Origin: Candidatus Zixiibacteriota bacterium | Lineage (GTDB): Bacteria; RBG-13-66-14; B26-G2; WVWN01 | DNA length: 64,000 nucleotides | NCBI GenBank assembly: GCA_030613505.1 | Contig: JAUWLW010000009.1 | Coordinates: 1,110 to 65,109, forward strand | Direction: 5' to 3' | Shown here: piece after piece, positions 4,138 to 57,142 of the stretch | How the letters are laid out: every line of letters begins with the position of its first letter | Position numbering within the stretch: position 1 is the stretch's first letter | The notes under the pieces: generated by a model | The model's database searches: none | Told to the model about the DNA's origin: nothing | The model's input: the letters and a program-made list of their open reading frames with translations, nothing else | Program-made: the position numbers and the translations under genes

Positions 4138-4150
4138 CGTGGTAAACGAT

Positions 4151-5128: not shown

Positions 5129-5176
5129 CGCAGCGCCAGAGGACCCGCGGCCCGCAACCTACAGGGGTTGATTAAA

Positions 5177-5380
5177 ATGTTCGGTTCGATCGGCATTCAG
5201 GAAGTATTACTTATACTGCTTATCGCGCTGCTTTTATTCGGCGCCAAACGCCTGCCGGAGATAGGCCGCGGCCTGGGCAAGGGCATTCGCGAATTTAAGA
5301 AAGCCTCGCGGGATATTAGCGGTAAAATTACCGAAGAAGCGGAAGACAAGGAGCCGGGGAAGAACGAATCAACGCCGTAA
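5177..5380 (+). CDS. tatA: Twin-arginine translocase subunit TatA/E.
   Basis: '[43 protein letters not shown]' is the canonical TatA TM helix plus amphipathic helix. A GGGG RBS-like run lies ~9 nt upstream of the ATG at 5177. A TTG at 5168 is an alternative start. Confidence 0.85.
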
Positions 5381-5437
5381 ACGGGCGGCGCGGGAAATCC
5401 GGCGGGCGCCCCTTCCTCCAATTTAATTCCGTAACTT

Positions 5438-6220: not shown

Positions 6221-6230
6221 AACCACGACT

Positions 6231-7013: not shown

Positions 7014-7022
7014 CGCCCTAGC

Positions 7023-11238: not shown

Positions 11239-14200
11239 ATACAAACTGGCATGGGCCTTGGCTCTCGGGGTCGTTTTTACCGCCGCGCGCGCGGCGGCTT
11301 TCGGTAAGTCCGTCGTCCGCAACGAGAAGTTGTCCTGGCGGATCCTGCCCACCGAACATTTCGACATCTATTACTACGAGGAGGAAGATTTTCTCCTCGA
11401 TTGGGGGGCCGAGATTGCCGAGGACGCCTACATCAAGATGTCGGACGAGCTGGGGTACGATTTGAATAAGCGTATCCCGATAATAATTTTCATGTCGGCG
11501 CGCCATTTCGAACAAAACAACATAAGTCCGGTATCGGGGGAGGGCGTGGGCGGTTTTTCGGAACCGCTTAAGAGCCGCCTCGTGATGCCGTACAACGGCT
11601 CCCAGCGCCAGTTCGAGGATACCATGGTCCACGAAATGGTGCATATCTTCCAATTTAACATGCTGTTCCCGACCATGGGCGCGGTATTTACGGCCGCGGC
11701 GCCGCCGGACTGGTTTATGGAGGGGATGGCTACCTACTACGGTAACGATATCGATCCGGAAGGCGAGATGGTCTTGCGCGACGCCGTCATGAGCGAGAGC
11801 GTCCCCGACCTCGAGCGACTGAACGATTTCCGGTATTTACCCAGCCCGTACCTCGGTTATAAGCTAGGCCAGTCGGTAATGGTGTATTTAGTCGAGACGT
11901 ACGGCGACGACGCACCGGCCGAGCTACTGCGGGCGTTCGGCGGCACGACGTTGAGGAGGCCCGATACCGCTCTGGACGACGCGTTCGGCATCAAGCTCGC
12001 CGACCTCAGCGAGGATTGGAAGGTTTGGCTCCGGCGACGCTATTGGCCTCTTATAGGCGAAAAGGACCAGCTCAAGGATTTCGCGACCGAGCTGACGCCC
12101 AAAGATGACAGGCGCGATTATATTACGTATTTCAAGCCGAAGTGGTCGCCCTCGGGCGATTTGGTGGCGTGCCTAACGGTCAAGGAGCGCTTCCTGGACA
12201 TCTTCCTCGTGAACGCCGAGACCGGCGAGAGGTTCGAGAATCTCACCAAGGGTTATTCGCTGTCGAAGTACGAGTACATAATGTATTTGCAGAACGGCCT
12301 CAGCTGGTCCCCGGACGGCAACTTTATCGCTTTCGTCGGCAAAAAGGGAACCTACGACCAGATATTCATATTGAACGTTTTCAACCGCAAGATCGCTCGG
12401 CGCTATAACCCCGAGTTCGAGGATGTCCTCTCGCCGGCGTACTCGCCCGACGGGACCAAGATCGCTTTCGCCGGCATCAAACGCGCGAAGAGGGATATCT
12501 ACGTTCTGGACGTGGCGTCGGGCGCGATTACGCCCGTTACCGACGACTTCTACTCCGACGGCTATCCCAATTGGTCGCCGGACGGCGAGTACATTTACTA
12601 CGCCTCCGAACGGCAGACGTTCCACAACATATTCCGCGTACGGCCCGACGGCACGGGCCGGGAGCAGATCACCTTCGGCGATCACGAGAACGTTTCGCCC
12701 GCGGTATCCCCCGACGGCTCGCGGTTGATGTTCGTATCGGACCGCGCGGACGGCATCTTCAATATTTTCGCGATGGATTTGGAGACACGGGACTTAGGCC
12801 GGTATACCGACGTCGTGACCGGCGTTATGGACGCGGCCTGGTCCCCCGACGGCGAGACCATAGCGTTTACGTCTTTCGAGAACATGACGTATTCCATCTG
12901 GGCCATGCCGTGGCGGAACGAGCCGGTGGCGGAGGTCGCGCTCGAGCGTCCGGAGCCGGGCGACTACGGGTACGCGGAGTGGCTGGCGCGGCGCGGCGAC
13001 CGGGGCGAGGGCGGGGATGAAGTCGAACTGTCGGTCGGCGGTGAACCCGCGGGCGTTGCCGTGGCCTTCGCCGGCGAGGAGGAATCGGGGGCGGGCGCCG
13101 GCGGCGAGGAGAGCGAGGCCGGCGAGGAGGAGGAGCTCGAGCCGCCGACGGTCCGGGACCTCGTCGTTTCCGATATCGTGGCCGACTCGCGGAAGTACGG
13201 CATCAAGTTCAGCCCCGATTACCTCTACACGACGTTTTCCTATACCTCGGGCGGCATTTTGGCCAACTATACCGTATTCGGTTTGAGCGACATCCTCGGC
13301 AGCCACCGCATCGACATCCTCTTCGATTTGACAACCATCGGCTCTTTTAACGATTTAAGCCTCGCGTTGGATTACTATTACATGACGAGGCGCACGTCGT
13401 ACGTCTTCTCGGCGATAACCTGGCGGGATTGGTATGTAGCTAACGAGATCGGCTTCGACGAGCGCCTTTCGGGCGGGTCGGCGGTCGCCTATTATCCGTT
13501 GAACATGAGGAACCGGGTGGGCGTCGGCCTTTACGGTCACCACCGCCGGCGGATATACTATGACTACGAGCTGGAAAAGGAGATACCGTCCCGGGACGAC
13601 AATATGTTGGGCGCGTTGGCCAGTTTCACCCGCGATACGTCGCAGTGGGGGTACTATCACCCCACCGCGGGCACCCGTTTGGCCTATACCGTCCGCCAGA
13701 CGGTGCCGGCCACGTCGCAATCGTTGTATTATACCGAACAGATCCTCGACGCCCGGCGGTATATTAGGATATCCCGGCGGATTAGCCTGGCTTTCCGGGC
13801 CGCGGCCGGCCTCGGCTCCGGCCGCGCCCCCGAGAACTTCTTCATAGGCGGCGGCTCGACGCTGCGCGGCTACCGTTACGACGAGATCTACGGCACGCGT
13901 TTCGGCCTGGGCAGTTGCGAGTTCCGGTTCCCGATCGTCGATTACGTCGTGTGGCCCATAGAGGGTTTCGCCATCGGCGGTTTCCGCGGCCTTTTCTTCG
14001 TAGACCTCGGCTCCGCGTGGGCGGACTACGACAACGAGTCCATCTACCCCGACGACCGCCAGTGGCACACCGACGACGAGGACCTCGAATACGACCGCTT
14101 CACGTTCGCCACGTCCGAAGGCGGGTGGCACCTGGTCCACGGCAAGATGGCGTTCGGGACCGGTTTCAGGTGGTGGCTGGGGTACTTCGACCTGAAGTTC

Positions 14201-14278
14201 GATTGGGGTTGGCGCACTAACCTCCGCGACGTGGAGAAGCCGCCGCGCTTCCACTTCACGCTGGGCGCCGATTTCTAA
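11219..14278 (+). CDS. Multidomain outer-membrane protein: N-terminal gluzincin-like peptidase, TolB-like PD40 beta-propeller, acidic linker, and C-terminal Omp85-family beta-barrel.
   Basis: Start chosen at GTG 11219, giving the signal peptide 'VKLRGFKYKLAWALALGVVFTAARAAAFG'. The ORF is open from 11150. 'HEMVHIFQ' plus downstream 'FMEGMATYY' form an HExxH...E gluzincin motif. Repeated 'WSPDG/YSPDG/VSPDG' PD40 blades are present. Acidic linker 'GEEESGAGAGGEESEAGEEEELEPP'. The C-terminal ~340 aa carry Omp85 hallmarks 'GGGSTLRGYRYDEIYGTRFGLGSCEFRFPI', 'GGFRGLFFVDLGSAW' and a terminal '...FHFTLGADF' beta-signal. Confidence 0.7.
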   Translation: MKLRGFKYKLAWALALGVVFTAARAAAFGKSVVRNEKLSWRILPTEHFDIYYYEEEDFLLDWGAEIAEDAYIKMSDELGYDLNKRIPIIIFMSARHFEQNNISPVSGEGVGGFSEPLKSRLVMPYNGSQRQFEDTMVHEMVHIFQFNMLFPTMGAVFTAAAPPDWFMEGMATYYGNDIDPEGEMVLRDAVMSESVPDLERLNDFRYLPSPYLGYKLGQSVMVYLVETYGDDAPAELLRAFGGTTLRRPDTALDDAFGIKLADLSEDWKVWLRRRYWPLIGEKDQLKDFATELTPKDDRRDYITYFKPKWSPSGDLVACLTVKERFLDIFLVNAETGERFENLTKGYSLSKYEYIMYLQNGLSWSPDGNFIAFVGKKGTYDQIFILNVFNRKIARRYNPEFEDVLSPAYSPDGTKIAFAGIKRAKRDIYVLDVASGAITPVTDDFYSDGYPNWSPDGEYIYYASERQTFHNIFRVRPDGTGREQITFGDHENVSPAVSPDGSRLMFVSDRADGIFNIFAMDLETRDLGRYTDVVTGVMDAAWSPDGETIAFTSFENMTYSIWAMPWRNEPVAEVALERPEPGDYGYAEWLARRGDRGEGGDEVELSVGGEPAGVAVAFAGEEESGAGAGGEESEAGEEEELEPPTVRDLVVSDIVADSRKYGIKFSPDYLYTTFSYTSGGILANYTVFGLSDILGSHRIDILFDLTTIGSFNDLSLALDYYYMTRRTSYVFSAITWRDWYVANEIGFDERLSGGSAVAYYPLNMRNRVGVGLYGHHRRRIYYDYELEKEIPSRDDNMLGALASFTRDTSQWGYYHPTAGTRLAYTVRQTVPATSQSLYYTEQILDARRYIRISRRISLAFRAAAGLGSGRAPENFFIGGGSTLRGYRYDEIYGTRFGLGSCEFRFPIVDYVVWPIEGFAIGGFRGLFFVDLGSAWADYDNESIYPDDRQWHTDDEDLEYDRFTFATSEGGWHLVHGKMAFGTGFRWWLGYFDLKFDWGWRTNLRDVEKPPRFHFTLGADF

Positions 14279-16891: not shown

Positions 16892-18664
16892 ATGGCCAAA
16901 GTCCGGAAGCTCGACGAAGCAACGATAGCGCTCATCGCCGCGGGCGAAGTGGTGGAGGGCCCGTGGTCGGTCGTCAAGGAGCTTACCGAGAACAGCCTCG
17001 ACGCCGGCGCGGGGCGCGTCGACGTATCCGTCGACGGCGGCGGCTTCAAAGAGATAAAGGTGACGGACGACGGCTGCGGCATGGGCGAGGAGGACCTGGC
17101 GTTAGCGTTCGAGCGTTACGCGACCAGCAAAGTCGCGGGTCCCGAGGACCTCGACGCCGTCGCGACGTTGGGGTTTCGGGGCGAAGCGCTGCCGGCCATA
17201 GCCGCGGTCTCGCGGGTGACGGTCTATACGCGGGCCGAGGACGAACCGACGGGGTTGAAGGCGGAGGTCGCGGCCGGGACGGTGGCCGTTTCGCGGGAGG
17301 GCGCGCCGCCGGGGACGACGGTAATAGTCCGCGACCTTTTTTACAACGTCCCGGTGCGTCGTAAGTTCGCGGGCCGGCCGGCCAGCGAGTGGCGCCGCGC
17401 CGCGGAAGCGTTCAAGCGCCTAGCGCTCGCCCGGCTGGCGCCGGCGTTCTCGCTCACCAAGGACCGCCGCCTGCAATACACTACCTCGGCCGACGCCACC
17501 GCGCGGCAGCGCGTCGGCGAGGTCCTGGGGTGGGAGCTGTTGGACCAATTGATCCCCGTCGCCGCCCAAAGGGGCGATTTTTCTCTGGAGGCCTACCTGT
17601 CGCCGGCGTCGGCCTCGTACGGGACTACCGGCAATATTTACACCGTCGTGAACGGCAGGCCGGCTCGCGCCAAGCCGGTATTCAAGGGCGTTATGTCGGC
17701 CTACGACGGTAGGCTGGAGCGCGGCCGGTACCCCCTGGTTGTGCTCTACCTCGACGTCCCGGCGGAAGCCGTCGACGTCAACGTACACCCCCGCAAGGAG
17801 GAGGTCCGGTTCGCAGACGGGGCCGCGGCGTTCGAATTCGTAAGTCGCGCGCTACGGGAGGAGCTGGCGCGCGTGGGCGTCGTGGTGCCGTCGACTACTT
17901 TCGAGATGCCGTCGCGAAAGGCTCCATCCGGCTCGCCGGAGGTGACGGCGGCGATTCGGGAAAGCGTCCAGGGCTACCTGAAAAGACACGGCCTGTGGCC
18001 GGAAGGTATGTTCGGCGGCGTCGGAAGCGGTGAAGTGAAGGCAGAGGCCGCGGCCGCGCCGGCGGGCGTCGCCGTCGCCGAGCGCTCGCCGGATGGCGGC
18101 TCGGTGGAAGTGTTGGGCCAGCTCGATAATACGTACGTTATCGTACGCCGGGGAGGCGACCTGGTCGTCGTAGACCAGCACACCGCCCACGAGCGGGTCA
18201 TCTACGACCGCCTGGCCCGGGCCGCGGGCGACGCCGGCCGCCAGGAGCTCCTTATGCCGGTTACGGTGTCGTTGGGGGCGGCCGCGGCGGCGGATTTGCG
18301 GCCGTGTCTTCAAGCGCTCAACGACTTGGGGTTCGGGGTCGAAGAGTTCGGCGGCGACGCCTTCGTACTGCGCGGCCATCCCAACGACGTACGCGTCGGC
18401 GACGTCGAAAAGTTTTTAGCGCGCGTGGTAACAGATTTCGTTGAGGAGGGACGACCCGCGGAGCTGGAGAGACGCCGAGAGTCCGTGCTCAAGGGTGTGG
18501 CTTGCCACGGCGCCGTGAAGGCCGGCGAGCGTTTGGAGCACGCGGAGATGGCGGCGCTGGTACGCGACCTCTTCGCTTCGCCCTCGCCGGACGTCTGCCC
18601 CCACGGCCGGCCGACCATGGTCAACCTCGCGGCGCGGGATTTGGCGCGTCTATTCCGGCGTTAA
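16892..18664 (+). CDS. mutL: DNA mismatch repair protein MutL.
   Basis: N-terminal GHKL ATPase motifs 'IAAGEVVEGPWSVVKELTENSLDAGA' and 'DDGCGM'. C-terminal dimerisation region. 590 aa. Confidence 0.85.
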   Translation: MAKVRKLDEATIALIAAGEVVEGPWSVVKELTENSLDAGAGRVDVSVDGGGFKEIKVTDDGCGMGEEDLALAFERYATSKVAGPEDLDAVATLGFRGEALPAIAAVSRVTVYTRAEDEPTGLKAEVAAGTVAVSREGAPPGTTVIVRDLFYNVPVRRKFAGRPASEWRRAAEAFKRLALARLAPAFSLTKDRRLQYTTSADATARQRVGEVLGWELLDQLIPVAAQRGDFSLEAYLSPASASYGTTGNIYTVVNGRPARAKPVFKGVMSAYDGRLERGRYPLVVLYLDVPAEAVDVNVHPRKEEVRFADGAAAFEFVSRALREELARVGVVVPSTTFEMPSRKAPSGSPEVTAAIRESVQGYLKRHGLWPEGMFGGVGSGEVKAEAAAAPAGVAVAERSPDGGSVEVLGQLDNTYVIVRRGGDLVVVDQHTAHERVIYDRLARAAGDAGRQELLMPVTVSLGAAAAADLRPCLQALNDLGFGVEEFGGDAFVLRGHPNDVRVGDVEKFLARVVTDFVEEGRPAELERRRESVLKGVACHGAVKAGERLEHAEMAALVRDLFASPSPDVCPHGRPTMVNLAARDLARLFRR

Positions 18665-18685: not shown

Positions 18686-18715
18686 AAAGCCGCGGCTCGG
18701 CCGCGGCGTTTTTTA
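18686..18715 (+). terminator. Rho-independent terminator after mutL.
   Basis: Palindromic stem GCCGCGGC-tcg-GCCGCGGC followed by GTTTTTT. Confidence 0.6.
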
Positions 18716-18717
18716 AT

Positions 18718-19503
18718 CTAGACGCGCGATTTGACGCGGCTTCGTCGGCGTCGGACGATTTCGCCGGCGAGGCGCATGTACGCTTGCGCACCCGCCGACC
18801 GGCCGTCGAAGGTGATGGCCGGTTTTCCGCTGGCGGGCGCTTCGGCCAAAGCTACGCTCCGGGGTATTACGGTTTTGAATACGAGCCTGCCGAAGCGGCG
18901 GCGAAGGTCGCTCTCGACTTCGTGGGCGAGTTTCGTCCGCTCGTCATACATCGTCAACAAAAACCCCTCGATTTCGAGGTCGGGATTTACGCTGAGGCGG
19001 ACTGTTTTGACGAGGCGGATAAATTGATCGAAGGCGTGGTAGGAATAAAATTCCGCTTGCACGGGGATTAGGACGGAATCGGCTGCGACGAGCGCCGATA
19101 CCATCAAATGCCCCATACTCGGCGGCGAATCCATTATTATGTATTCGTAGTCGTCGTCGAGTTCTTCCACCGAGCGGGCGAGCATAGTGCGGTTGAGGGA
19201 GGTCCGCATTATCTCGTCTTCGGCGTTGTTCGACCAGATGTTGTTGGGTATGACGTAGAGGTTGGGTATTTCGGTCTCGTGTATGCTGCCGGAGGCGGGG
19301 AAGTTGCGCATGAATATCTCGTACACGCCGCGGTAGAGCAAATCCTGGTTGAAGTCCAACGCCACGCTGGCACAGGCTTGGGGGTCGAGGTCGACGAGAA
19401 GCGTATTTTTCTCCGCGACCGCGAGCGAGGCGCTCAAGTTCACCGCGGTGGTAGTCTTCCCGACGCCGCCTTTTTGGCTGGCTACGGCGATTTTACGTGC
19501 CAT
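18718..19503 (-). CDS. ParA/Soj-family ATPase (orphan; no parB in the window).
   Basis: Deviant Walker A 'ASQKGGVGKTTTAVNLSASLA'. 261 aa. It lies immediately downstream of, and co-oriented with, the giant coiled-coil gene. Confidence 0.8.
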   Translation of the reverse strand: MARKIAVASQKGGVGKTTTAVNLSASLAVAEKNTLLVDLDPQACASVALDFNQDLLYRGVYEIFMRNFPASGSIHETEIPNLYVIPNNIWSNNAEDEIMRTSLNRTMLARSVEELDDDYEYIIMDSPPSMGHLMVSALVAADSVLIPVQAEFYSYHAFDQFIRLVKTVRLSVNPDLEIEGFLLTMYDERTKLAHEVESDLRRRFGRLVFKTVIPRSVALAEAPASGKPAITFDGRSAGAQAYMRLAGEIVRRRRSRVKSRV

Positions 19504-19534
19504 TAAGGTATAAGCTCCCGGCTCGCTGGTTGGG

Positions 19535-22500
19535 TTAGGCCGGCGGTTTGGTTTCGCTTGTGCGCTTCAGCGCTTCGTTTAAGATGACGTCGGAGCGCGC
19601 GAGTTTTTTCTGCAGGTCGTCGAGGCGGTCGCTGGTCGATTTTAAATTCGCCATTTTGGCGTCGATGTCTTTGGCGAGAAAGCTCACTTGGGCGAGCTTT
19701 TCGGCGACGGCGTCCACCCGTTTTTCTTCGTTCCGCAGCTGGCCCATTTTCTCTTCCAGGGCCGCCGCGGCGCGATTTATCTGTTCGAACCTGGCCTCGA
19801 CTTTCTTGAGGTCGGCGCGTTTGGCGTTCACGTCGCGAACGGCCGCGGCGACGTCTTTGCGCGTCTCCGAAAGTTCGCTTAGCTGGCCCCGGATCTGGTT
19901 TATGGCCTCCGCCTCGCCCTTGAGGTCCGTCATACCGTCTTGGACCAGGTCGTAATAGGCTTTGAGGTCGCGGACTTCGCGTTCGACCGCCGCCACTTCG
20001 TCCCGCCGTTGGCCCAGGACGCGCAGGCGTTCGTCGAGGTCTTCGGCCAACATGGTGAGGGCGTTCACGCGTTCGTCGACGGCGACGATGTCCTGGCTCC
20101 GCCGCTCGACGAGGGTGGCTTTGCGGGTCGCTTCCTGGGAGGCATCCAGGATCTTCTCGAGGACGCGATTGACTTCTTTCTCCGTATCAGCGGCTTGCGC
20201 GGCGTGGGAGGAGACGCGGTCGTTGACGTCCGTTACCTCGGCGCGGAGCTCTTCGATCTTTTCCACTTCGCCGGCCAGCTCGTGCCTCAACTTGCCCTGG
20301 GCCGCCAGGGCTTTTTCGACCGCGGCGGCGCTCTCCTCGAGGGTGACGACTTTTTCGGCCAGGCGGTCGATCTCCTTCTCGGATTTGAACGTTGCCCGAC
20401 GTTTGTCATCGAGAAGGGAGAGGTCTCGGTTGAGGTCGTCGAGGCGGGAGCTCAGCGCGTCGAGTTTGGCGTCCTCGCGGAGTACCGTCATCATGCGCCC
20501 GTCGATGTCTTTGAGGAGAGTGTCGATTTTTACGGTCTTGTCGTGGACGCTGGTAACCAGCTCCTCGCGGAGCCGGATCTCCTCCTGGCGTCGTTCGACT
20601 TGCTCGAGCGCTCCCTGCACGGATTTGTTCATACGGGCGAAATCTTCTTGCGTTCGGCCGCGTTCCGTCCGATATTCGCCGAGTTCGCGCGACGCGGCCT
20701 CGGATACGCGGCCAAGCTCCTCCTGCGCCTTTTGAATATTCTTGATCTCCTGCGCCGCGGCCTCGACCCTGCCTGCGTCGGCCGTTATCTCGCGGATTTT
20801 ATTTTCGACCTCGTCGAGGCGAGAGGCTCGAGCGGTGAAGGCCGCTTCGCGCGCTTTGTTCTCCGAGATTTGGTCGGCGACGGCGCGGGACATCGCGTCC
20901 GCCTCGGCCAGCCGCGTCTCGAGCATGCCGATTTTATCGTGTAATTTCTCCATCGCAGGCGCTTGGGCTTGGACTTCGGCCAGGTCCGCCTTGACGGCCC
21001 GGAGCACCTCAGCTCGGTTATCTATGGCTTCCAGGGACGCTTCGGCTTCGTCCAGTTTGCTTTCGGCGAAGCCTAGTTTGCCGACGAGGTCTTCGGCGGT
21101 GCGCGATACCTTGTCGAAGTCGGCCCGGACGGTGCGGAACTCGGCCATCTGGCGTTCGAACGTCGCCACTTCGCGTGCGAAATCCTCTTGGCGGCCTTCG
21201 ACATCGGCCAGCTTTTCCCGGATGCCTTGAACTTCGCGGAAGCGGTCGCGCGTTTCGGCCAGCGTCTCCTCCAGGTCGGCGACGCGCTTTTCGCCGTCGC
21301 GCACCATCTTCTGTTCTTCGGCCAGCTTCTTGATCCGAACGTCCATTTCCCACAGCAGGACGTCGAGCTTACCCGACTCCTCGTTGGCCTTGGTGATAAG
21401 TTCGCGTTGGTCTTCCAGCACGTGGATCTTGGTATTGATATGTTCGATAAGCGCGTTTAAGCGGTCGACGTTTTGCGACGCTTCGGTGTAGCGTTCGCGC
21501 TCGAGGCGGAGGGCGCCGAAATCCTCTTGGATTTTAGCGAGCGATTTATCGAGGGTTTGAGCTCGGTCGGCCGCGTTGTTAAGCTCCTTCTGAGCCGCTC
21601 CGAAGCGAGTGTTGAAGTCGCCGAGTTTTTCGTCGATGCCGTTCATTTTCCCGAGTACGGCGTCGGCGCGTTTTTCGGCGCCGGCGAGCTCGGCGACGCG
21701 CTTTTCGAAGCCCTCGACTTTCTGGTCGATCTTAGTCGTACGGCCGGCCAGCGCGCCCACGCGACGTGAAGCGTCACTTACGCCGGCGTCGGCGTCTTTG
21801 AGCTCTTTGTGGATGTTATCTAGCGAACTTTTTACGCCGGCTACGTCTTCGCGGTACTTTTGGGCTTCGCCGCGGACGCGATTGAGCTCGCTCTGGGCAG
21901 CTTTACCCTCGGCGGCAGCTTCTTTCGCCGCTTGGGTCGTGGTTTCGATCCGGGTTTTTATGGCGTCGATATTTTTCGCGGCCCTGGCTGCCTCGCTTAG
22001 TTTGCTCTCCAGGGGGGCGATTTTCGTGGCGACCTCTTCGGCCCGTTCGCGCAGCGTTTCCGTTTTGTTAGATAACGTCGTGATGGTTTTGGCGCGCTTC
22101 TCGAGTTGACCCAAGCCGCCCTCGATGTCCTTTAGGCGGTGTTCGATTCCGTCGCTCGAGATTTTGAGGGTACCCTTAAGGTTGGACAACGCGGTGGTTT
22201 GTTGGTCGGCAGTTTTTTTAGTATCGGCCAGCGACGATTTGATTTCGGCAAGGGTTTGTTTATTGGCTTCGTTAACCTTGGCGGTCTTTTCGGCGGCGGC
22301 ACCTGCGGCGCGGAGCTCGGCGCGGAATTCGGTCATTCGGCCGGCGGCTTTTTCAACGTTGTCCAGTTTGGCCCGGGCGGCGGCGATATCCTTTTCGACC
22401 GCTTTTAACTTCTTGGCCTGGTCGCCCACGCCTGCTACGTCTTTTTTGACGGATTTCAGCTCGGCATCGGCCCGGCCTATGCCCTGCACCGCGGTTTTGA

Positions 22501-23080
22501 CCGCTTTGTCCAGATCGACGATTTGCGTCGCCAACGACGACACGCGGTCGGCCGACTCGCGAACGCGGGCCGTAATTTTGTCCTCGGTACCTGCCAGCCT
22601 TTGGGTTATTTTAGCTATCTCCGCGTCCGTTCTCCGCAATTCGCCGAGTTTGGCCTCGAGTTTCGAAACGTCGCCGGCGGCGCGGCTTACGCTCTCGTTT
22701 AACGTACGCGCTTTTTTCTCGAGGGTAAGGAGGTCGGCCTGCTTTTCAGCCAGCGCGTTAAGTTGTTTCTCGACTTCTCCGGTTTTCGCGGCGGCCGCCG
22801 CGGTTTTTTCGGCGGTGGCGTCAACCTGCGCCGGCAGGCCTTTCGAGCTCTTGACCGCTCCGGCCAACGACGCGGCAGCAGCCTCGAACTCCTTGATTTT
22901 ATTGTCGAGTTCGTCCGCTTTTTTGAGGTCGCGTTCGACTTTGGCCGCCCGAGCCGTTAGCTTCTTTTCCTGGTCCGAGGCTTTGTCGATTAGCTTTTTA
23001 AATTCGGCCGCCCGCTTATCGAAATACTCGCCGACCAGTTCCGGCGTTAACTCCTTCTTTTTTCCAAACAAGGGGGCCAT
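19535..23080 (-). CDS. Giant coiled-coil protein (1181 aa), Ala/Glu/Lys/Leu-rich, with no ATPase head.
   Basis: Near-continuous heptad-like composition throughout ('LKKADELDNKIKEFEAAAASLAGAV...'). No Walker motif, TM segment or signal peptide. N-terminus 'MAPLFGKKKELTPELVGEYF'. A 31-nt gap separates it from the parA-like gene. Confidence 0.6.
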   Translation of the reverse strand: MAPLFGKKKELTPELVGEYFDKRAAEFKKLIDKASDQEKKLTARAAKVERDLKKADELDNKIKEFEAAAASLAGAVKSSKGLPAQVDATAEKTAAAAAKTGEVEKQLNALAEKQADLLTLEKKARTLNESVSRAAGDVSKLEAKLGELRRTDAEIAKITQRLAGTEDKITARVRESADRVSSLATQIVDLDKAVKTAVQGIGRADAELKSVKKDVAGVGDQAKKLKAVEKDIAAARAKLDNVEKAAGRMTEFRAELRAAGAAAEKTAKVNEANKQTLAEIKSSLADTKKTADQQTTALSNLKGTLKISSDGIEHRLKDIEGGLGQLEKRAKTITTLSNKTETLRERAEEVATKIAPLESKLSEAARAAKNIDAIKTRIETTTQAAKEAAAEGKAAQSELNRVRGEAQKYREDVAGVKSSLDNIHKELKDADAGVSDASRRVGALAGRTTKIDQKVEGFEKRVAELAGAEKRADAVLGKMNGIDEKLGDFNTRFGAAQKELNNAADRAQTLDKSLAKIQEDFGALRLERERYTEASQNVDRLNALIEHINTKIHVLEDQRELITKANEESGKLDVLLWEMDVRIKKLAEEQKMVRDGEKRVADLEETLAETRDRFREVQGIREKLADVEGRQEDFAREVATFERQMAEFRTVRADFDKVSRTAEDLVGKLGFAESKLDEAEASLEAIDNRAEVLRAVKADLAEVQAQAPAMEKLHDKIGMLETRLAEADAMSRAVADQISENKAREAAFTARASRLDEVENKIREITADAGRVEAAAQEIKNIQKAQEELGRVSEAASRELGEYRTERGRTQEDFARMNKSVQGALEQVERRQEEIRLREELVTSVHDKTVKIDTLLKDIDGRMMTVLREDAKLDALSSRLDDLNRDLSLLDDKRRATFKSEKEIDRLAEKVVTLEESAAAVEKALAAQGKLRHELAGEVEKIEELRAEVTDVNDRVSSHAAQAADTEKEVNRVLEKILDASQEATRKATLVERRSQDIVAVDERVNALTMLAEDLDERLRVLGQRRDEVAAVEREVRDLKAYYDLVQDGMTDLKGEAEAINQIRGQLSELSETRKDVAAAVRDVNAKRADLKKVEARFEQINRAAAALEEKMGQLRNEEKRVDAVAEKLAQVSFLAKDIDAKMANLKSTSDRLDDLQKKLARSDVILNEALKRTSETKPPA

Positions 23081-23283
23081 AACAGGACCTCCCGGCGGGC
23101 GCGACGTAACGCTCGACCGCCTACGCGCCGGCCAGACGTACGGAAGTTGAGTTTATATTATGATTTATAAAAATCCCTTAGAACTAAGAATATAGAATAA
23201 TTAGCCAATAGCGTCAACCGAAAAATATTATCTTTCGTCTATCGCCCCGCGGATAGACCGATGTAAGACGTTTAGCTCGGTTT

Positions 23284-23862
23284 TTAGAAGAACCAGTTTG
23301 TTACGCGCGACCGCACAAACGCCGCTGCCGCGACGGCGACGATTTGAATCAGTACCGCCGTTTCGCCTGCGAGAGCGACGCCGAACCGCCACCGGCTTTG
23401 GGTTCCCGCGGGGCGGCTCGTAAAGCGGGGAAGCCATATGGGAACCGTACCGCGATAGGCGCGGTATTCCCAGCTGAAGCGTCGCCCCAGGTCGCGGTCA
23501 CGCGCGCCCTGTATAAGCGAGTATAGCGCGATGAAGACTAACGCCGTCGCCAGCGGCAGCCACGGTAGAAGGCCCCCCGCCCATAGCGAGAGGCCGACGG
23601 CCACGGCGACGTTGCCGATATGCTTCGGGTTCCGCACCCAGCGGTACGGCCCGGCCGCCGAAAGATCGGCGATCGCTTCCGCCGCGTCTACACGGGCCCA
23701 CGTGCCGCCGTAACCCGAGGCCCACAGCCTCAACGCCTCGCCTGCTAAGGCAACCGCGGCGCCGAGCCACAACCAGGGGGTACGGCCTTCGGCGAAAAAC
23801 ATCACAACCGCCGTCCAAAGGACGACCGTGACGAATCGCGTCACTAAGAGAGTACGGGTCAC
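23284..23862 (-). CDS. ICMT/PEMT-family membrane methyltransferase-like protein.
   Basis: Multi-TM protein. 'GPYRWVRNPKHIGNV' (RHPxY-G-like) and 'RRFSWEYRAYRGTVP' resemble the isoprenylcysteine carboxyl methyltransferase / phospholipid methyltransferase C-terminal motif. Confidence 0.5.
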   Translation of the reverse strand: MTRTLLVTRFVTVVLWTAVVMFFAEGRTPWLWLGAAVALAGEALRLWASGYGGTWARVDAAEAIADLSAAGPYRWVRNPKHIGNVAVAVGLSLWAGGLLPWLPLATALVFIALYSLIQGARDRDLGRRFSWEYRAYRGTVPIWLPRFTSRPAGTQSRWRFGVALAGETAVLIQIVAVAAAAFVRSRVTNWFF

Positions 23863-23930: not shown

Positions 23931-24851
23931 TTACTTCCCCGCGAGGCGGCGCTGGAGGCGGTCCAGCATTTCGACCAGGCCGTCGATTACGGCGCCCGAA
24001 TCGACGACCTTCTCGGCTTCGGCCAGGGCATCCTCGTACCGGCCTTGCGCTTCCAGCGCCGCGGCGAGGTAGTAGCGCGCTTCGCCGTCGCCGGGTTTGC
24101 GCTCGAGCACTACGCGGTAGTGTTTCTCGGCGCCGGCGTAATCGCCCTGCATGAAGAGGATGCCGGCGAGGTTATAATTGGCCGTTAAGTTGGCCGGTTC
24201 GAATGCCAGCGCGTTCTCCAAGTGTGCTCGAGCCACGTCGTATTTGCGTTCGTTCATCTCCAGCAAGCCCAGGTACGACATGGCGAGCGCGTTCTCGGCG
24301 TCGGCCGTCAGCGCCCGCTCGAGCTTGGCGCGGGCTTCGCCGGCGTTACCGGCCATGAGTTCTAAATACGCGAGGCCGGTAAGGGCTCTCGATTCTCCGG
24401 GTATTTGGGCGAGGACCTGTTCGAACGTCGCCCGGGCGTCGTTGTCGCGGCCCGCGTCGAGATAAGCTTGGCCCAGCGCCAGGAGTATCGTCGCGTCGCC
24501 GGGGCGTTCTTTTAACGCCGCCCGGTAATTTACGATCGCGGCGTCGTACCGGCCAAGCGTATCCAACGCGAAGCCTTTGTAATAGAGTACCTCGACGGTA
24601 AAGGTCCCGGCGACGTCGCGGGCCATTGCGTCGTCCAACGCCTCGAGCGCTTCTTCGGCTTTGCCGCCCAGGATCAGCGCCCGAACGAATTGCAGCTTGC
24701 TCGCGAGCTCGGCTTCGCCGGGCGGGAGCTCTTCGCGCGGGACGCGCAAAAGTTCCAAATCGGCCAGCGACGGGCCGTCGCCTGTAGCGGCGGCGGCGAG
24801 CGTCGCGGCCGCAAACGCGGCCAACGCGGCGGCGAGCAGTCTTCTTCTCAC
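23931..24851 (-). CDS. Secreted TPR-repeat protein.
   Basis: Signal peptide 'MRRRLLAAALAAFAAATLAAAATG'. Multiple 34-aa TPR-like repeats ('AEALEALDDAMARDVAGTFTVEVLYYKGFALDTLGRYDAAIVNYRAA...'). Confidence 0.6.
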   Translation of the reverse strand: MRRRLLAAALAAFAAATLAAAATGDGPSLADLELLRVPREELPPGEAELASKLQFVRALILGGKAEEALEALDDAMARDVAGTFTVEVLYYKGFALDTLGRYDAAIVNYRAALKERPGDATILLALGQAYLDAGRDNDARATFEQVLAQIPGESRALTGLAYLELMAGNAGEARAKLERALTADAENALAMSYLGLLEMNERKYDVARAHLENALAFEPANLTANYNLAGILFMQGDYAGAEKHYRVVLERKPGDGEARYYLAAALEAQGRYEDALAEAEKVVDSGAVIDGLVEMLDRLQRRLAGK

Positions 24852-25050
24852 GGTATTAATTCAAACACCCCGGGGCGGCCAAGTCAAGGTCAAAGACGGG
24901 AAAAACGGGAGAAAACCGGCGTTCGGGTGGGATTTCGAAGGGGCCGGCCTAAGGGTATTCCGTTTAAGCCGTAAGCGGTGGGTGTAATAAGAGGAGGCCA
25001 GAAAAGGTTTGATATGGGACGCTTAAATGTTTTATAATAGATCTTTTAGT

Positions 25051-25617
25051 ATGAAGATACTCGTACATGCCTGCTGCGGGCCTTGTTTAGTGGCGCCGGC
25101 ACGCGCGTTAGCGGCGGAAGGGCACGAAATACTGGCATATTGGTACAACCCGAACGTCCAGCCGTACCGCGAGAACCGCAAAAGGCTCGCCGCCTTCAGG
25201 GAAGCCGCTAACCGCGACGGTTGGCCCGCCGACGTCGACGACCGCTACGACGTGGATTTTTTCCTGAAGGAGGTTGCCGTTCGCCGGGAAGGCCGTTGCC
25301 CGCGTTGCTACTACGAGCGGCTCTCGCGGGCCGCGGCGCGGGCGGCGGCGAACGGCTGCGACGCCTTCACGACGACGTTACTGATATCACGTCACCAAGA
25401 CCGTGAGGCCCTGCTGGAGGCGGGAGCGCGGGCGGGCGCAGCAGCCGGCGTCGCGTTTATGGGGAGCGACTTCAGGCCTTTGGACGGCGAGAGCCACCGC
25501 CTCGCCCGCGAGATGGGCCTTTACATCCAGGGTTACTGCGGCTGCATATATAGCGAGGAGGAACGTTACCGAAAGCGGGAGGACGTTGACTCGAGCGAAG
25601 TTCGATCTGGCGGTTAA
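25051..25617 (+). CDS. queH: Epoxyqueuosine reductase QueH (DUF208).
   Basis: 'MKILVHACCGPC', 'YWYNPNVQPYRE' and C-terminal 'CPRCYYERL' match the QueH pattern. ATG at 25051. The track ORF starts at 25027. Confidence 0.7.
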   Translation: MKILVHACCGPCLVAPARALAAEGHEILAYWYNPNVQPYRENRKRLAAFREAANRDGWPADVDDRYDVDFFLKEVAVRREGRCPRCYYERLSRAAARAAANGCDAFTTTLLISRHQDREALLEAGARAGAAAGVAFMGSDFRPLDGESHRLAREMGLYIQGYCGCIYSEEERYRKREDVDSSEVRSGG

Positions 25618-25645
25618 TGTCCCGCTGGTGTGGAAGCATCTGAGG

Positions 25646-26185
25646 ATGCCGGCGCAGGAGGCGGCGGGCGAACTCCGCCGCGAATTTGACGACGTTTACC
25701 GGCGAGCCCGGGCCGTGCTCGAGCCGAGGTATTCGTACGCTCGCGCGGCCGTCGTCGCGGCCCGCGGCCGGACGTTGGAATTGGAGGGCGTCGTCTTCGA
25801 AAGCGCGGACCTCGTAGAGATGGCGGCCGGCGCTTCCGCCGTCGTGGCCATGGCGGCGACGGTGGGCGACGGCATCGACGGGTTGGCGCGCGAGTACGAC
25901 GGCCGGGGCGAAACGTTCGCGATGACGGTGGCCGACGCCGTCGGCTCAGTGGCGGCGGAGGAGCTTATGTCGCGGCTGCACGCCTTCGTCGGCGCCGAAG
26001 CCGAGCGCGCGGGCGAGCTGGTAACGCGGCGCGTTAGTCCCGGCTACGGCGACTTTGAGCTCGCGGCCCAGGAGCGCCTGCTCCGGCTGGCCGGCGGCTT
26101 CGAGTTGGGAATCAGCTTGACCGAGAATTATATGATGGTTCCGCGCAAGAGCGTGACCGCGGTCGCGGCGGTTAAGGCGAGATGA
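25646..26185 (+). CDS. Stand-alone methionine synthase activation (AdoMet-binding, Met_synt_B12-like) domain protein.
   Basis: 'RRVSPGYGDFELAAQERLLRLAG...LTENYMMVPRKSVTAV' resembles the MetH C-terminal reactivation domain. Its stop overlaps the metH start (ATGA, 26182-26185). The start is uncertain: an ATG lies at 25646, but the ORF is open from 25403. Confidence 0.55.
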   Translation: MPAQEAAGELRREFDDVYRRARAVLEPRYSYARAAVVAARGRTLELEGVVFESADLVEMAAGASAVVAMAATVGDGIDGLAREYDGRGETFAMTVADAVGSVAAEELMSRLHAFVGAEAERAGELVTRRVSPGYGDFELAAQERLLRLAGGFELGISLTENYMMVPRKSVTAVAAVKAR

Positions 26186-28575
26186 AACTTAGGCGCGAAC
26201 AATTCAAGACTTTGGCCCGGAAGCGCGTTTTACTTCTAGACGGCGCGATGGGCACGCTGCTTCAGCGCGAAGGGTTGCCGGCCGGCGAGCCGCCGGACGG
26301 GTTCAATATACACCGCCCGGACGCGGTGCGCGCGTCGTACGCGGCCTACGTCGCGGCCGGCGCCGATATAATTTTAACCAATACCTTCGGCGCGACGAGG
26401 CGACGGCTCGCGCTCTATCGCCTCGCCTCCCGCGCCGACGAGATAAACCGCGCCGGGGTCGTGCTGGCGCGGGAGGCCGCGGCCGATAAAACCTGGGTGG
26501 CCGGCGACGTGGGCCCGTTGGGCGAGTATCCCGAGCCGTTGGGCGCGCTATCTTTCGACGAGGCGTACCGCGAATTCTACCGCCAGGCGCGGGTGCTGGC
26601 CGACGCCGGCGTGGACCTCGTCGTCGTCGAAACGATGTCGGACCTGCGCGAGGCCAAGGCCGCGGTGGTAGCGGCGCGCGCGGCTTTCGACGGCCCCGTC
26701 GTCGCCTTTATGACGTTCGACGACGGCGGCCGCGCCGTTACCGGGACGCCGCCCGAGGTGGCCGCCGTAACGCTCGTCGCCGCGGGCGCGGATGCGGTAG
26801 GGGCCAACTGTTCGGTGGGGGCGCGGGAGCTCGTGCCGGTTATTCGGGCGATGGCGGCCGCGGTGGACGTTCCGGTGTGTGCCAAGCCGAACGCCGGCCT
26901 GCCCAGACTCGTGGCGGGCAAGACGGTGTTCCGGCAGACGCCGGCCCAATTCGCGTCGTGGGTGCCGAAGCTCGTGGCTGCCGGCGCCGCGGTGGTGGGC
27001 GGTTGCTGCGGCACGACCCCCGAACACGTGCGCTTGGCGGCGAAAGCGGCCAGGGGTTTGAAGCCGCCGAGACGACGCCGGGGAGAGCGTAGGTCCACGC
27101 TTGCCAGCCGCACGCGGTTGGTTGTCGCGGGCGCGGGCGCGCCCGTCGTCGTGGGCGAACGTATTAACCCGACGGGCCGGCGCGAGCTTACGCGGGAGCT
27201 TGCGAAAGGCTCTTTCGATTTGGTAGCGAGCGAGGCCGAGGCGCAGGTGGCCGCGGGCGCGGCCGTCGTCGACGTAAACGTGGGCGACGGGGACGGCGCC
27301 GCGGGCACGATGGCGGCCGCGGTACGCGCGATTCAGGACGCCGTGGACGTGCCGGTTTCGGTAGACTCCGCCAGGCCGGAGGTGCTGGAGGCGGGCTTGA
27401 AGGCGGCGGTGGGGAAGCCGTTGTTGAACTCCTGCCCGGCGTCGGGGCGGGCGATGGCTAAGCTTCTGCCGTTGGCGCGCCGCTGGGGGGCGGCGGTCGT
27501 GGGTTTGGCGATGGACGCCCGCGGCATCCCGGCGACCTCGGCCGAACGGTTCAAATTGGCCGAAAAGTTTGTAGGCCGGGCGCTGGACGAGGGTATCGCG
27601 CTCGACGACATATACGTCGACCCGTTGATGTTGACCGCGGCGCAGGGCCGTGCGGCCCAAGCCTTCGAGACCCTGCGTGAGATAAAGAAGACCCTCGGCG
27701 TGCGGACGATTATGGGTGTGAGCAACGTGTCCCACGGCCTTCCGAGGCGAGACTTGTTGAACGCCGCGGCGTTTCTGTACGCCGCGGGCGCGGGCCTCGA
27801 CCTCGCCATCGTCGATCCCCTCGACGAGCGGATACGGGAAGCGATGGGTACGGCGTCGGCTTTGGCGGGCGGCGAGCGCGAAGTGGCTGCGTACGTCGAA
27901 GCGTTTTTGGAAAAACCTTCACGGAAAAAGGTAAGGAAGAGGAAGGTTCCGACGCCGGGCAACGAGCTGTACGAGGCGGTCGTCGACGGCCGGCGCGAGC
28001 GGGCGGCGGCCGCGGCCGCTCGAGCCGTTAAAAATTCCCCCAAGCCGTTTGCCATAAATAATAAATTTATCGTGCCGGCGCTGGAGGAAGTGGGTCGCCT
28101 TTTCGAGAGGAAAGAGTATTATCTTCCGCAGGTAATAAGGGCGGCTGAAGCGGGGCAAGCGGCGTTTAGCGTTATTGAGAAAGCAACCGATAAAGAGTCG
28201 CGCCGTCCGGCGGGCCGCGTCGTCTTCGCGACCGTGGCGGGCGACGTCCACGACATCGGAAAGAACGTCGTCGCCGCGGTGCTGCGCAGTCACGGCTTCG
28301 ACGTTTACGATTTGGGGAAGAACGTTTCCACGCCGCGCGTGGTCGAGAGCGCCAAGGCGCGGCGGGCGGACGTCGTGGCGTTGTCGGCGCTGATGACGAC
28401 GACGATGCCCGAGATGGGCAAAGTCGCGGAGGCGCTGCGGGAGCGCGGCGTCAAGGCGCGCTTGCTGGTTGGTGGCGCCGTCGTTACGGAAAAGTACGCC
28501 AAGGAGATAGGTGCCGCGTACGCGCGCGACGCCGTCGCGGCGGCGCGCGTCGCCAAACGTCTGGTTCGACGATAA
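26182..28575 (+). CDS. metH: Cobalamin-dependent methionine synthase MetH lacking the activation domain. It carries the Hcy-binding, pterin-binding, B12 cap and B12-binding modules.
   Basis: N-terminal 'LLLDGAMGTLLQ' Hcy S-methyltransferase domain. Pterin-binding barrel. 'VVFATVAGDVHDIGKNVV' DxHxxG cobalamin-binding motif. It ends after the B12 domain at 797 aa. Confidence 0.8.
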   Translation: MKLRREQFKTLARKRVLLLDGAMGTLLQREGLPAGEPPDGFNIHRPDAVRASYAAYVAAGADIILTNTFGATRRRLALYRLASRADEINRAGVVLAREAAADKTWVAGDVGPLGEYPEPLGALSFDEAYREFYRQARVLADAGVDLVVVETMSDLREAKAAVVAARAAFDGPVVAFMTFDDGGRAVTGTPPEVAAVTLVAAGADAVGANCSVGARELVPVIRAMAAAVDVPVCAKPNAGLPRLVAGKTVFRQTPAQFASWVPKLVAAGAAVVGGCCGTTPEHVRLAAKAARGLKPPRRRRGERRSTLASRTRLVVAGAGAPVVVGERINPTGRRELTRELAKGSFDLVASEAEAQVAAGAAVVDVNVGDGDGAAGTMAAAVRAIQDAVDVPVSVDSARPEVLEAGLKAAVGKPLLNSCPASGRAMAKLLPLARRWGAAVVGLAMDARGIPATSAERFKLAEKFVGRALDEGIALDDIYVDPLMLTAAQGRAAQAFETLREIKKTLGVRTIMGVSNVSHGLPRRDLLNAAAFLYAAGAGLDLAIVDPLDERIREAMGTASALAGGEREVAAYVEAFLEKPSRKKVRKRKVPTPGNELYEAVVDGRRERAAAAAARAVKNSPKPFAINNKFIVPALEEVGRLFERKEYYLPQVIRAAEAGQAAFSVIEKATDKESRRPAGRVVFATVAGDVHDIGKNVVAAVLRSHGFDVYDLGKNVSTPRVVESAKARRADVVALSALMTTTMPEMGKVAEALRERGVKARLLVGGAVVTEKYAKEIGAAYARDAVAAARVAKRLVRR

Positions 28576-56867: not shown

Positions 56868-57142
56868 GTACACCCTCCGTATCTTTTTGTATTGAAGTAC
56901 CTTGGAGGAGTTACACAACCTCCGACGTTATACGCCGCAGTCCCGGTTGTGGAACCCTTATCCTATCGCCCGCATAAAACCCCTTTAGAAGCTAAATAGC
57001 GGGACCTCTATTTTAACGGCGAATCTTTCCCGTTCCAAGGATCTCCGGGCGCATGGCAAACGTATTTGAGTATCGTCGTCATGGCCCGGACGCGACGCGT
57101 AGACCGGCTCGGTTTTGACCGCGAGGCCGACGATAAACACAA

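Follow-up and report, generated by a model that had tools for sequence, protein, structure and literature searches.

A 64,000-nucleotide (nt) stretch of contig JAUWLW010000009.1 from a Candidatus Zixiibacteriota bacterium (the whole stretch is called the window below, and positions are counted from its first nucleotide) carries two adjacent genes that encode a 1181-amino-acid (aa) coiled-coil protein and a ParA-type ATPase. The two genes are very probably functionally coupled, and we hold with moderate confidence that they form a PomX-like module in which a coiled-coil scaffold would activate its own ParA through an N-terminal peptide. An earlier note on this DNA had described an open reading frame (ORF) of 1181 aa that is co-oriented with a Soj/ParA-type ATPase gene and lies 31 nt from it, had seen no parB after parA, and had suggested that the pair could be a positioning system not described before. 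Its coordinates and anatomy are right; a terminator hairpin and the convergent mutL gene occupy the place after parA, and searches of Pfam, NCBIfam, the PDB and the literature found no curated family, solved structure or paper for the pair.

Conservation of the Gene Pair

Related loci were recovered from metagenomes and metagenome-assembled genomes (MAGs) by searches with the coiled-coil protein and with ParA, and every fetched locus was then divided into ParA-linked or unlinked by tblastn with the window ParA. The earlier note had proposed synteny in relatives as a check, and the pair is kept in all 16 of the 16 loci that have a full-length-alignable coiled-coil orthologue (25-91% identity): the same type of ParA gene lies directly downstream across a spacer of 27-68 nt. 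Among about 30 loci with more distant relatives (20-23% identity, ~760-900 aa), tblastn found no ParA within 5 kb.

The ParA-linked loci are of three types. In the 1181-aa clade (loci L005, L006, L020, L021, L022, L023, L011/L012 and L009/L010/L024, plus the fragment L025 and the frameshifted L008) identity to the window proteins is 91-49% for the coiled coil and 96-75% for ParA. A second group (L013/L014, L015, L026 and L019) has coiled-coil proteins of 946-961 aa that are ~25% identical to that of the window where measured, with ParAs that are 54-57% identical, and the third type, L017, has an 860-aa coiled coil and a ParA that is 49% identical. L015 comes from a 2.6-Mb Candidatus Coatesbacteria sequence (CP070755.1, GCA_020348885.1) in which the pair is at ~1.90 Mb, and the ParA of one orthologue is labelled Candidatus Zixibacteria; all known members of the pair are from uncultivated bacteria.

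The flanking genes differ as follows: a tetratricopeptide repeat (TPR) gene and a PEMT gene with mutL in the window, L005 and L006; a TonB receptor gene with mutL in L009; glyoxalase, ResB and TauE genes in L013 and L015; GCS2 and NAD synthase genes in L017; and a Band_7 gene in L019. The pair is thus present in at least four different genomic contexts, and its retention through complete turnover of the flanks is a classical signature of functional coupling. The present data argue against the adjacency being confined to one lineage. No ParB-family domain, dnaA or gid was found among the ~48 ORFs scanned with Pfam across the 64-kb window, and no parB was called in the 5-10 kb flanks of eight related loci, so the canonical parB beyond mutL in other assemblies that the earlier note had said would speak against its proposal did not appear there.

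Two genes that flank the pair in single loci are recorded here. A bactofilin gene (917-1303, minus strand) lies ~4 kb upstream of the pair in L017, which of all the orthologous loci has diverged furthest; as an isolated instance it may be due to chance. A double-zinc-ribbon (DZR) protein gene flanks the pair in L014, and the window itself has two neighbouring DZR protein genes (56067-56918 and 57143-57775, both minus strand) as well as a PspA/IM30 membrane-stress gene (38866-39615, plus strand).

A Distinct Soj-Derived ParA Subfamily

The ATPase is by its motifs a ParA/MinD (deviant Walker A) ATPase whose catalytic residues are all intact. In Pfam it matches AAA_31 at 3.4e-50 (170.9 bits, cutoff 27) and CbiA at 89 bits (cutoff 25.4), and it has the deviant Walker A sequence SQKGGVGKTT with the signature lysine K11 plus K16, the motif 2 sequence LLVDLDPQ with D38 and D40, and the Walker B sequence IIMDSPP with D125. 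Its nearest solved relative is Myxococcus xanthus ParA (MxParA; 8RAY, identified through PMC12462528), to which it is ~50% identical (3e-63, 216 bits), followed by Thermus Soj (1e-51, 178 bits) and Helicobacter Soj (1e-49), with MinD and McdA far weaker (57 bits for McdA). Since these nearest relatives are chromosomal ParAs, the protein descends from the Soj branch.

Within that branch its clade is a subfamily of its own. Identities among the 120 best ParA homologues fall into a 72-95% set, then a 49-58% set, and then generic Soj proteins at 50% or less, and comparison of 29 clade sequences (that of the window included) with 74 generic Soj sequences gave the distinguishing residues listed in Table 1. 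At position 218 the clade has A, S, V or T, whereas R218 is present in 74 of 92 generic Soj matches.

Table 1. Residues that distinguish the ParA clade of the window from generic Soj proteins
ParA position	Clade	Generic Soj
9	S	N
44	C (29/29)	N
48	A	G
90-91	W, S	D, L
104-105	N, R	R, E
132	H	L
158, 161	F, F	L, L
164	L	T
167	T	L
218	A (25/29, never R)	R

Two of these differences fall in regions of known function in MxParA. Residues were mapped onto 8RAY by a gap-free alignment with an offset of 19 that was checked on D60A and R238, and by this mapping A218 of the window ParA aligns with MxParA R238 (8RAY residue 219). The R238E change in MxParA abolishes non-specific DNA binding and leaves ParB binding intact (PMC12462528); the position corresponds to CcParA R224 (PMC7229837), and the conserved arginines of non-specific DNA binding are BsSoj R189 and R218, CcParA R195 and R224, and MxParA R238 (PMC7229837, PMC12462528). 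The window ParA retains the other DNA-contact positions R189, R215, V217, K227 and R235; by alignment, one of the two conserved DNA-binding arginines is lost in the subfamily. We take position 218 here to be that of BsSoj R218, on a Soj sequence whose sole check was that it has Arg at 189 and 218. Most clade members have a basic C-terminal tail (RRRRSRVKSRV, residues 251-261, in the window protein), which may replace the lost arginine. One subfamily member (P0144, 377 aa) has a lysine-rich C-terminal extension of ~120 residues in place of the short tail, which suggests that the tail is a functional and expandable element, perhaps one that binds polyanions.

The second region is the pocket that receives the activating peptide. 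In MxParA, Y81, E82, D110 and E117 hold R13 of ParB, and the loop near Walker B contacts the hydrophobic face of the ParB peptide. The four residues correspond to Y61, E62, W90 and E97 in the window ParA, so three of four are retained and the cation site for ParB R13 appears largely kept, and the loop has changed from SLGLL to SMGHL/TLSHL across the whole clade. Part conserved and part remodelled, the pocket thus appears kept in outline and re-specified, and its divergence from the ParB pocket agrees with the coiled-coil protein having taken the place of ParB as partner.

Could this ParA nevertheless be an ordinary chromosomal partition Soj that works with a distal ParB-parS (the parS site sequence is TGTTNCACGTGAAACA), beside a coiled-coil gene that is an unrelated housekeeping cytoskeletal operon-mate? 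The kinship with the M. xanthus and Thermus proteins, the kept catalytic motifs, the kept DNA-contact residues R189, R215, K227 and R235 and pocket residues Y61, E62 and E97, and the occurrence of wider-family coiled coils in housekeeping contexts without ParA (below) all agree with such an arrangement. We nevertheless consider it unlikely, as the adjacency survives down to 25% identity of the coiled coil and 49% identity of ParA with complete flank turnover, the clade-specific changes fall exactly in the ParB-pocket loop and at the R238-equivalent arginine, and the 64-kb window contains no parB, dnaA or gid.

A further gene of the window (34421-35314, plus strand) matches the Pfam family named 'ParA' (PF10609, 4e-86). 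It was rejected as a second ParA because it is of the Mrp/NUBPL iron-sulfur cluster carrier type and not a partition ATPase.

The 1181-Residue Coiled-Coil Protein

In the coiled-coil protein, 63.4% of the residues are A, E, K, L, R or D, and there are 7 Pro, 1 Trp, no Cys and 52 Gly. Its maximum Kyte-Doolittle value over 19 residues is only 0.68, which indicates that it has no transmembrane (TM) segment, and no Walker A motif is present in its 1181 residues. BLOSUM autocorrelation peaks at lags of 7, 14, 21 and 28 (z = 6-9) and is strongest at lags 31 and 38; there is no specific 51-residue period of the kind found in Scy, which has a 51-residue repeat. When 28-aa windows were tested for hydrophobic excess at heptad positions a and d above the 95th percentile of shuffled sequences, 96.8% of the residues passed, the only exceptions being residues 1-15 and 1166-1181. 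A single-sequence AlphaFold2 (AF2) model, whose low mean confidence (predicted local distance difference test score of 54.5) makes it good for secondary structure only, is nearly all helix, with helices mostly of 60-120 residues separated by short breaks (~13 in all), and residues 1-12 are non-helical in it. The ~1160 helical residues would span ~170 nm if continuous and fully extended, and the calculated net charge is +14 for the N-terminal half and -28 for the C-terminal half. The earlier note had described a protein of almost entirely heptad-like A/E/K/L/R/D sequence with no head domain, Walker motif or TM segment, which is hence not an SMC, and all of this is borne out; its word 'uninterrupted' is an overstatement, given the 52 glycines and the breaks of the low-confidence model.

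Searches of Pfam, NCBIfam, PADLOC and the PDB with this protein returned only coiled-coil matches that are driven by composition, among them BLOC1_2, laminin, tropomyosin, crescentin and the arms of SMC, Rad50, LmuB and JetC. The crescentin profile match is marginal (E = 0.007) and those to tropomyosin and keratin profiles are weak too. Several identities were considered and rejected. SMC, Rad50 and MukB were set aside because there is no Walker A motif and no head domain and the SMC/Rad50 models match arm regions only, at 88-117 bits against cutoffs of 567-1000 bits. The PADLOC matches to LmuB and JetC are likewise confined to the arms, and PADLOC gave nothing specific that would make the locus an anti-phage defence system. 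A DivIVA-like N-terminus (LTPE...F...EF) was dismissed for want of a DivIVA profile match.

So biased a sequence might be an assembly artefact (the earlier note had raised a mis-assembled repeat) or a non-coding open frame, and it is true that the sequence is of low complexity and that the strand opposite it has many long ORFs that are spurious. However, an identical protein is encoded on contigs of two independent assemblies (ERZ25748748 and SRR14865927), orthologues are present in at least 16 loci from many samples, the ORF has no tandem DNA repeats and the protein no internal repeats detectable by BLAST, and the promoter and ribosome-binding site are conserved. In comparisons with four orthologues, in which dS reached 1.4, the ratio of nonsynonymous to synonymous substitution rates (dN/dS) of the gene was 0.20-0.35, so the gene is under purifying selection. 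The independent identical copies, the absence of repeats and the dN/dS values rule out mis-assembly, and the artefact reading, to which we give practically no weight, is refuted.

The protein is not featureless heptad filler, since it has an invariant N-terminus, three conserved blocks and a fixed length. Its N-terminal peptide has the consensus MAPL[FI]GKK (MAPLFGKK in the window), with M1, A2, P3, K7 and K8 invariant across orthologues down to 25% identity; L017 and L019 begin with MLGKK, and the L015 and L026 genes start with GTG. No part of the protein is more constrained than this invariant, non-helical peptide, and dN/dS is lowest for residues 1-60 (0.06 against L006). The three blocks (Table 2) were called from the invariant columns of an alignment of seven coiled-coil sequences (A3). 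The central one has no Pfam or PDB counterpart, the second is recognisable also in the 860-aa L017 orthologue, and the pattern MLA[ED]D[LV][ED]E of the third is one of the two most conserved patterns that were used for the metagenome scan. Residues 100-500 are variable, and ~220 of them are absent from the shorter orthologues. In nine loci, down to 49% identity, the protein is exactly 1181 aa long without insertions or deletions and has its single Trp always at position 577; this length constraint suggests that it serves as a spacer or ruler.

These properties bear on whether the coiled-coil protein now serves as partition adaptor in place of ParB, giving ParB-independent chromosome segregation. 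It would then attach to the chromosome or the origin region, either by itself or with the help of a further factor, while offering its N-terminal peptide to ParA. Segregation without ParB has a precedent in Borrelia ParZ/ParA. The lysine-containing N-terminal peptide resembles the logic of the LG(R/K)GL motif of ParB, the coiled coil has a net positive charge in its N-terminal half, ParA is Soj-derived, and parB is lacking from the window and from the flanks of the related loci. Replacement of ParB is nonetheless distinctly unlikely in our judgement: the protein is helical coiled coil throughout, with no DNA-binding domain detectable by Pfam or PDB profiles or in the AF2 model, and its ParA lacks the arginine that is needed for nucleoid binding in M. 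xanthus.

A Wider Coiled-Coil Family

An exhaustive phmmer search of 1.84 billion representatives with the coiled-coil protein gave 118 matches at E < 1e-3, most of them over residues 500-640. A regular expression finds the motif LNALAEHV..K.KALE.QK..VERA..E..RLNEMVW.MD in most of these matches, and the window protein meets the form L[NH].L.EH[IV]..K...L..Q[RK]......A.......L[ND]....W.[ML][DE] ahead of its ~600-aa C-terminal coiled-coil arm. This evidence places the 1181-aa protein in a larger, uncharacterised family of coiled-coil proteins, the rest of which show no linkage to ParA. Those members (L027-L056, P0004-P0118) are ~750-930 aa long, are 20-23% identical to the window protein and have no annotation beyond 'hypothetical' or the generic COG label 'chromosome segregation ATPase'; where they have a taxon label they come from Nitrospinota or Fibrobacterota, the others being from unclassified MAGs. 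Their neighbours differ by clade (RelA/SpoT, L,D-transpeptidase, Asd), are housekeeping genes and give no functional clue.

The top NCBIfam match of the window protein is the 'SpiroCoCo family coiled-coil protein' (C-domain model NF047515 and N-domain model NF047514, with the LA_3659 family). The C-domain model reaches a summed 170.9 bits (cutoff 125), but six separate stretches, aligned at shifting positions, contribute to this sum; the N-domain model gives 59 bits (cutoff 75) and aligns to residues 1074-1170, the wrong end of the protein. Individual conserved blocks score 20-41 bits, the conserved core alone scores 41 bits, and wider-family members score 106-140 bits. Membership was rejected as a demonstrated homology, the match being fragmented and position-shifting in spite of the summed score, and it looks like a likeness of coiled-coil composition. 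Literature searches found nothing published on the SpiroCoCo or LA_3659 families.

One locus with a ParA-less wider-family coiled-coil gene (L018, 8001-10265) has, two genes away from it and beside an HU gene, a gene (3512-7339, plus strand) for a 1275-aa protein with a degenerate ParA-like N-terminal domain followed by ~950 aa of E/K/R-rich coiled coil. Its Walker A sequence is SSSGGVGNST, which is without both lysines. This protein hints at another link between a ParA-like domain and a coiled coil.

The N-termini of the wider family are short, hydrophobic and basic (MALFGSK, MALFKK, MLDAFKK) and thus resemble that of the window protein, and these proteins have no adjacent ParA; the peptide may therefore serve another purpose, for example membrane binding. 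The N-terminus of MinE binds membrane. It is accordingly possible to picture the coiled coil as a membrane-associated or polar landmark or a cytoskeletal element of the crescentin, Scy or TipN type that only sequesters or localises ParA, with the hydrophobic-basic peptide as a membrane-targeting sequence that has no ATPase-activating role. Beyond the shared N-termini, the fixed 1181-aa length suggests a structural ruler or spacer, the crescentin, tropomyosin and keratin profiles match weakly, and the charge polarity of the two halves favours ordered self-association. Against these points, two to five hydrophobic residues ahead of the lysines are few for an amphipathic membrane helix, and a landmark would leave the clade-wide remodelling of the activating-peptide pocket of ParA unexplained; we regard it as improbable.

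Comparison with Known Systems and a Possible Mechanism

ParB, MinE and PomX stimulate their cognate ATPases by a peptide that binds at the dimer-interface pocket. As a rule, the activator of a ParA/MinD ATPase works by means of a short peptide, located in or close to its N-terminus, in which positive residues are essential; in PomX such a peptide is joined to a coiled coil that forms filaments (PMC13170346). The pair described here fits this known scheme of a ParA/MinD ATPase with an activating scaffold. The PomXYZ system of M. xanthus is its closest working analogy, with a likeness that is functional and architectural only: in both, a ParA/MinD ATPase is paired with a self-assembling coiled coil (self-assembly being proposed here), the genes are adjacent, and an N-terminal peptide is followed by coiled coil, in the window MAPL[FI]GKK and then ~1150 heptad-patterned residues. 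In contrast to PomXYZ, the window ATPase is Soj-like, whereas PomZ is of another branch and binds DNA, and the window ParA lacks the R238-equivalent arginine; the loci compared have no PomY-like second activator or conserved third gene; and the coiled coil is about three times as long as PomX and fixed in length. No PomX, PomY or PomZ family is among the NCBIfam or Pfam matches of the pair.

On this analogy we propose that the Soj-derived ParA has switched partner from ParB to the coiled-coil protein, and that the pair may work as follows: The coiled-coil protein would self-assemble into a scaffold or filament, and its N-terminal peptide, which is invariant, free and lysine-bearing, would engage ATP-bound ParA at the pocket of its dimer interface and thereby stimulate hydrolysis. 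A gradient of ParA, formed either on the nucleoid or along the scaffold, would then position or organise the coiled-coil assembly and any material that it carries; equally, the scaffold might capture and localise ParA. Physical interaction, ATPase activation by the peptide, self-assembly and a positioning role are all inferred from sequence and analogy.

Several observations weigh against this PomX-like arrangement. The similar N-termini in the ParA-less wider family have been noted above. In addition, the basic tail may compensate for the loss of R218, which would return ParA to canonical use of the nucleoid; ParA is nearest to bona fide chromosomal ParAs and so might after all act with a ParB from another part of the genome; and neither a third gene nor a cargo gene is conserved across the loci compared.

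A different arrangement that would follow from loss of the R238-equivalent arginine, and that we think rather doubtful, is that ParA does without a nucleoid or membrane matrix and cycles on a protein matrix, a lattice or filament of the 1181-aa coiled coil. The acidic C-terminal half would then attract the basic tail of ParA and the N-terminal peptide would trigger hydrolysis. A variant, which we group under the same doubt, makes the pair the sole, ParB-free chromosome segregation machinery of these candidate phyla.

The pair also differs from the other systems in which ParA-type ATPases act with protein partners. It resembles ParABS (Soj/Spo0J) in that its ATPase is about half identical to M. 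xanthus ParA with catalytic motifs kept, along with most of the DNA-contact positions and three of the four ParB R13-holding residues, but the window locus has no adjacent parB and its neighbourhood is not of the origin type. Moreover, ParA has A218 for the conserved Arg, a motif 2 of DPQxCAS in place of DPQGNAT and an added basic tail, and the partner is a coiled coil with neither a CTPase nor a helix-turn-helix domain.

In Myxococcus, bactofilins act as scaffolds for ParA; PadC contains a ParB-like domain, and TipN has TM segments. Bactofilin-PadC (Myxococcus), Scy (Streptomyces), TipN/PopZ (Caulobacter) and DivIVA/Wag31 are large scaffolds that recruit or regulate a Soj-type ParA (PMC9178275), and they resemble the present protein as polymer-forming or coiled-coil partners of such a ParA. 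They differ in acting on the canonical ParA of ParABS, without being paired in an operon with a dedicated diverged ParA, and none has sequence similarity to the window coiled coil. Crescentin, Scy and FilP (intermediate-filament-like or coiled-coil rich proteins, CCRP) have heptad or hendecad rods that form filaments; the observations on the window protein in this respect are its strong heptad periodicity and the marginal crescentin profile match. McdA/McdB (carboxysome) and PpfA/TlpT (chemoreceptor) consist of a ParA-family ATPase and a protein-cargo adaptor with a basic N-terminal region (PMC9178275), and so share with the window pair the two components and the basic N-terminus of the partner. 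Here, however, ParA matches McdA only weakly (57 bits, as compared with 216 bits to M. xanthus ParA), the partner is a coiled coil of more than 1000 aa, and no carboxysome or che genes are linked.

Operon Layout and Control Elements

The coordinates of the pair and of its predicted elements are given in Table 2. Both genes are on the same strand with the coiled-coil gene upstream, and one conserved promoter, a short spacer that contains a ribosome-binding site and a single terminator after parA make them one two-gene operon; the promoter and terminator scan scored neither element on the minus strand between the two genes.

Table 2. Features of the coiled-coil gene/parA operon (window positions)
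Feature	Positions	Strand	Basis and remarks
Coiled-coil gene	19535..23080	-	ORF, ATG start, 1181 aa; proposed scaffold and ParA partner
parA gene	18718..19503	-	ORF, 261 aa; Soj-derived ATPase, distinct subfamily by sequence
Intergenic spacer	19504..19534	-	31 nt; carries GGGAG ribosome-binding site of parA (19515-19519)
N-terminal non-helical peptide	23036..23080	-	Codons 1-15, MAPLFGKKKELTPEL; proposed ParA-activating peptide
Central block	21281..21511	-	Codons 524-600, LRLERERY..A.QN..LN.LIEHINTK...LEDQRELI.KANEESGKLDVLLWEMD; 25 invariant columns (A3)
Second block	20378..20575	-	Codons 836-901, ..LLKDID.RM..L.......AL..RL.DL......KRR..KSE; invariant columns (A3)
Third block	19910..20083	-	Codons 1000-1057, VDER.NA..MLAEDLEERL..L...R.....VERE.RDL; invariant columns (A3)
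Promoter, sigma-70-like	23189..23217	-	TTGACG-17-TATATT; promoter scan; serves two-gene operon
GC-rich hairpin, 5' untranslated region	23086..23141	-	Overlaps ribosome-binding site GGGAGG (23088-23093)
Bidirectional intrinsic terminator hairpin	18689..18707	both	GCCGCGGC-N3-GCCGCGGC; terminator scan; common to convergent mutL

The promoter lies in the AT-rich 203-nt intergenic region upstream of the coiled-coil gene, and its GTTGAC and extended -10 element TATTCTATATT are invariant in an alignment (A4) of eight orthologous upstream regions. The ~110-nt 5' untranslated region (UTR) is conserved in the orthologous regions of L005, L006, L020, L021, L022 and L011. Its hairpin, the 3' arm of which overlaps the ribosome-binding site of the coiled-coil gene, is weakly supported (RNAalifold with seven orthologues predicts 17 pairs, one with a compensatory change) and may be a translational control element; an Rfam scan of the locus, this hairpin included, gave no match. 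The ribosome-binding site of parA is 11 nt 5' of its ATG. The terminator hairpin has eight G-C pairs with T-runs on either strand and lies between the stops of parA (18718) and mutL (18664).

On the far side of the convergent mutL gene (16892-18664) is a gene for a haloacid dehalogenase (HAD) hydrolase, and upstream of the operon on the same strand are genes for a PEMT/ICMT-like membrane methyltransferase (23284-23862) and then for a TPR protein (23931-24851). These adjoining genes appear functionally unrelated to the pair.

Other Genes in the Window

Three further features of the window deserve a brief record. A gene at 11150-14278 (plus strand) encodes a ~1040-aa fusion in which Peptidase_MA_2 and Tricorn/PD40 (TolB-like) beta-propellers are joined to an Omp85/BamA-type barrel at the C-terminus. 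Few outer-membrane proteins would be expected to have such an architecture, and the fusion is conserved near the locus in L001, L009 and L011. The genes at 28-4137, 4139-5128, 8642-9853, 50503-52254 and 52348-54096 comprise several for secreted peptidases with FlgD_ig or Por_Secre_tail C-terminal domains (a C25 gingipain-like, an M10 and two tandem M14 carboxypeptidases), and a PorV-like gene is among them. The C-terminal domains and the PorV-like gene indicate that the source organism probably has a type IX secretion system and is affiliated with the Fibrobacteres-Chlorobi-Bacteroidetes (FCB) group. Lastly, methionine synthase appears to be split (25027-25617, 25403-26185 and 26182-28575, plus strand): a ~200-260-aa ORF with the Met_synt_B12 activation domain, which overlaps the 3' end of queH, precedes with a 4-nt overlap a 797-aa MetH core that is without that domain, and the same arrangement is present in L001 and L011.

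Implications

What is new here is a Soj-derived ParA subfamily without the R238-equivalent arginine, a dedicated giant coiled-coil partner whose length is exact to the residue, and the lack of a parB in the window and in the flanks of the related loci, and these features suggest that the pair is an undescribed intracellular positioning or scaffolding system. ParA/MinD ATPases are general positioning engines of bacteria, and each new class of partner (ParB, MinE, PomXY, McdB, ParP, PadC) has brought to light a new cargo or a new mode of spatial patterning. The pair would add a compact, self-contained module in uncultivated FCB-type lineages and a natural experiment in how a ParA switches its partner and possibly its matrix; if cycling on a protein matrix proved true, ParA/MinD patterning would have a third type of surface, one that is at once a molecular ruler. 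MAPLFGKK is a candidate activating peptide, and the pair offers a first functional handle on the wider family of ~900-aa hypothetical coiled-coil proteins.

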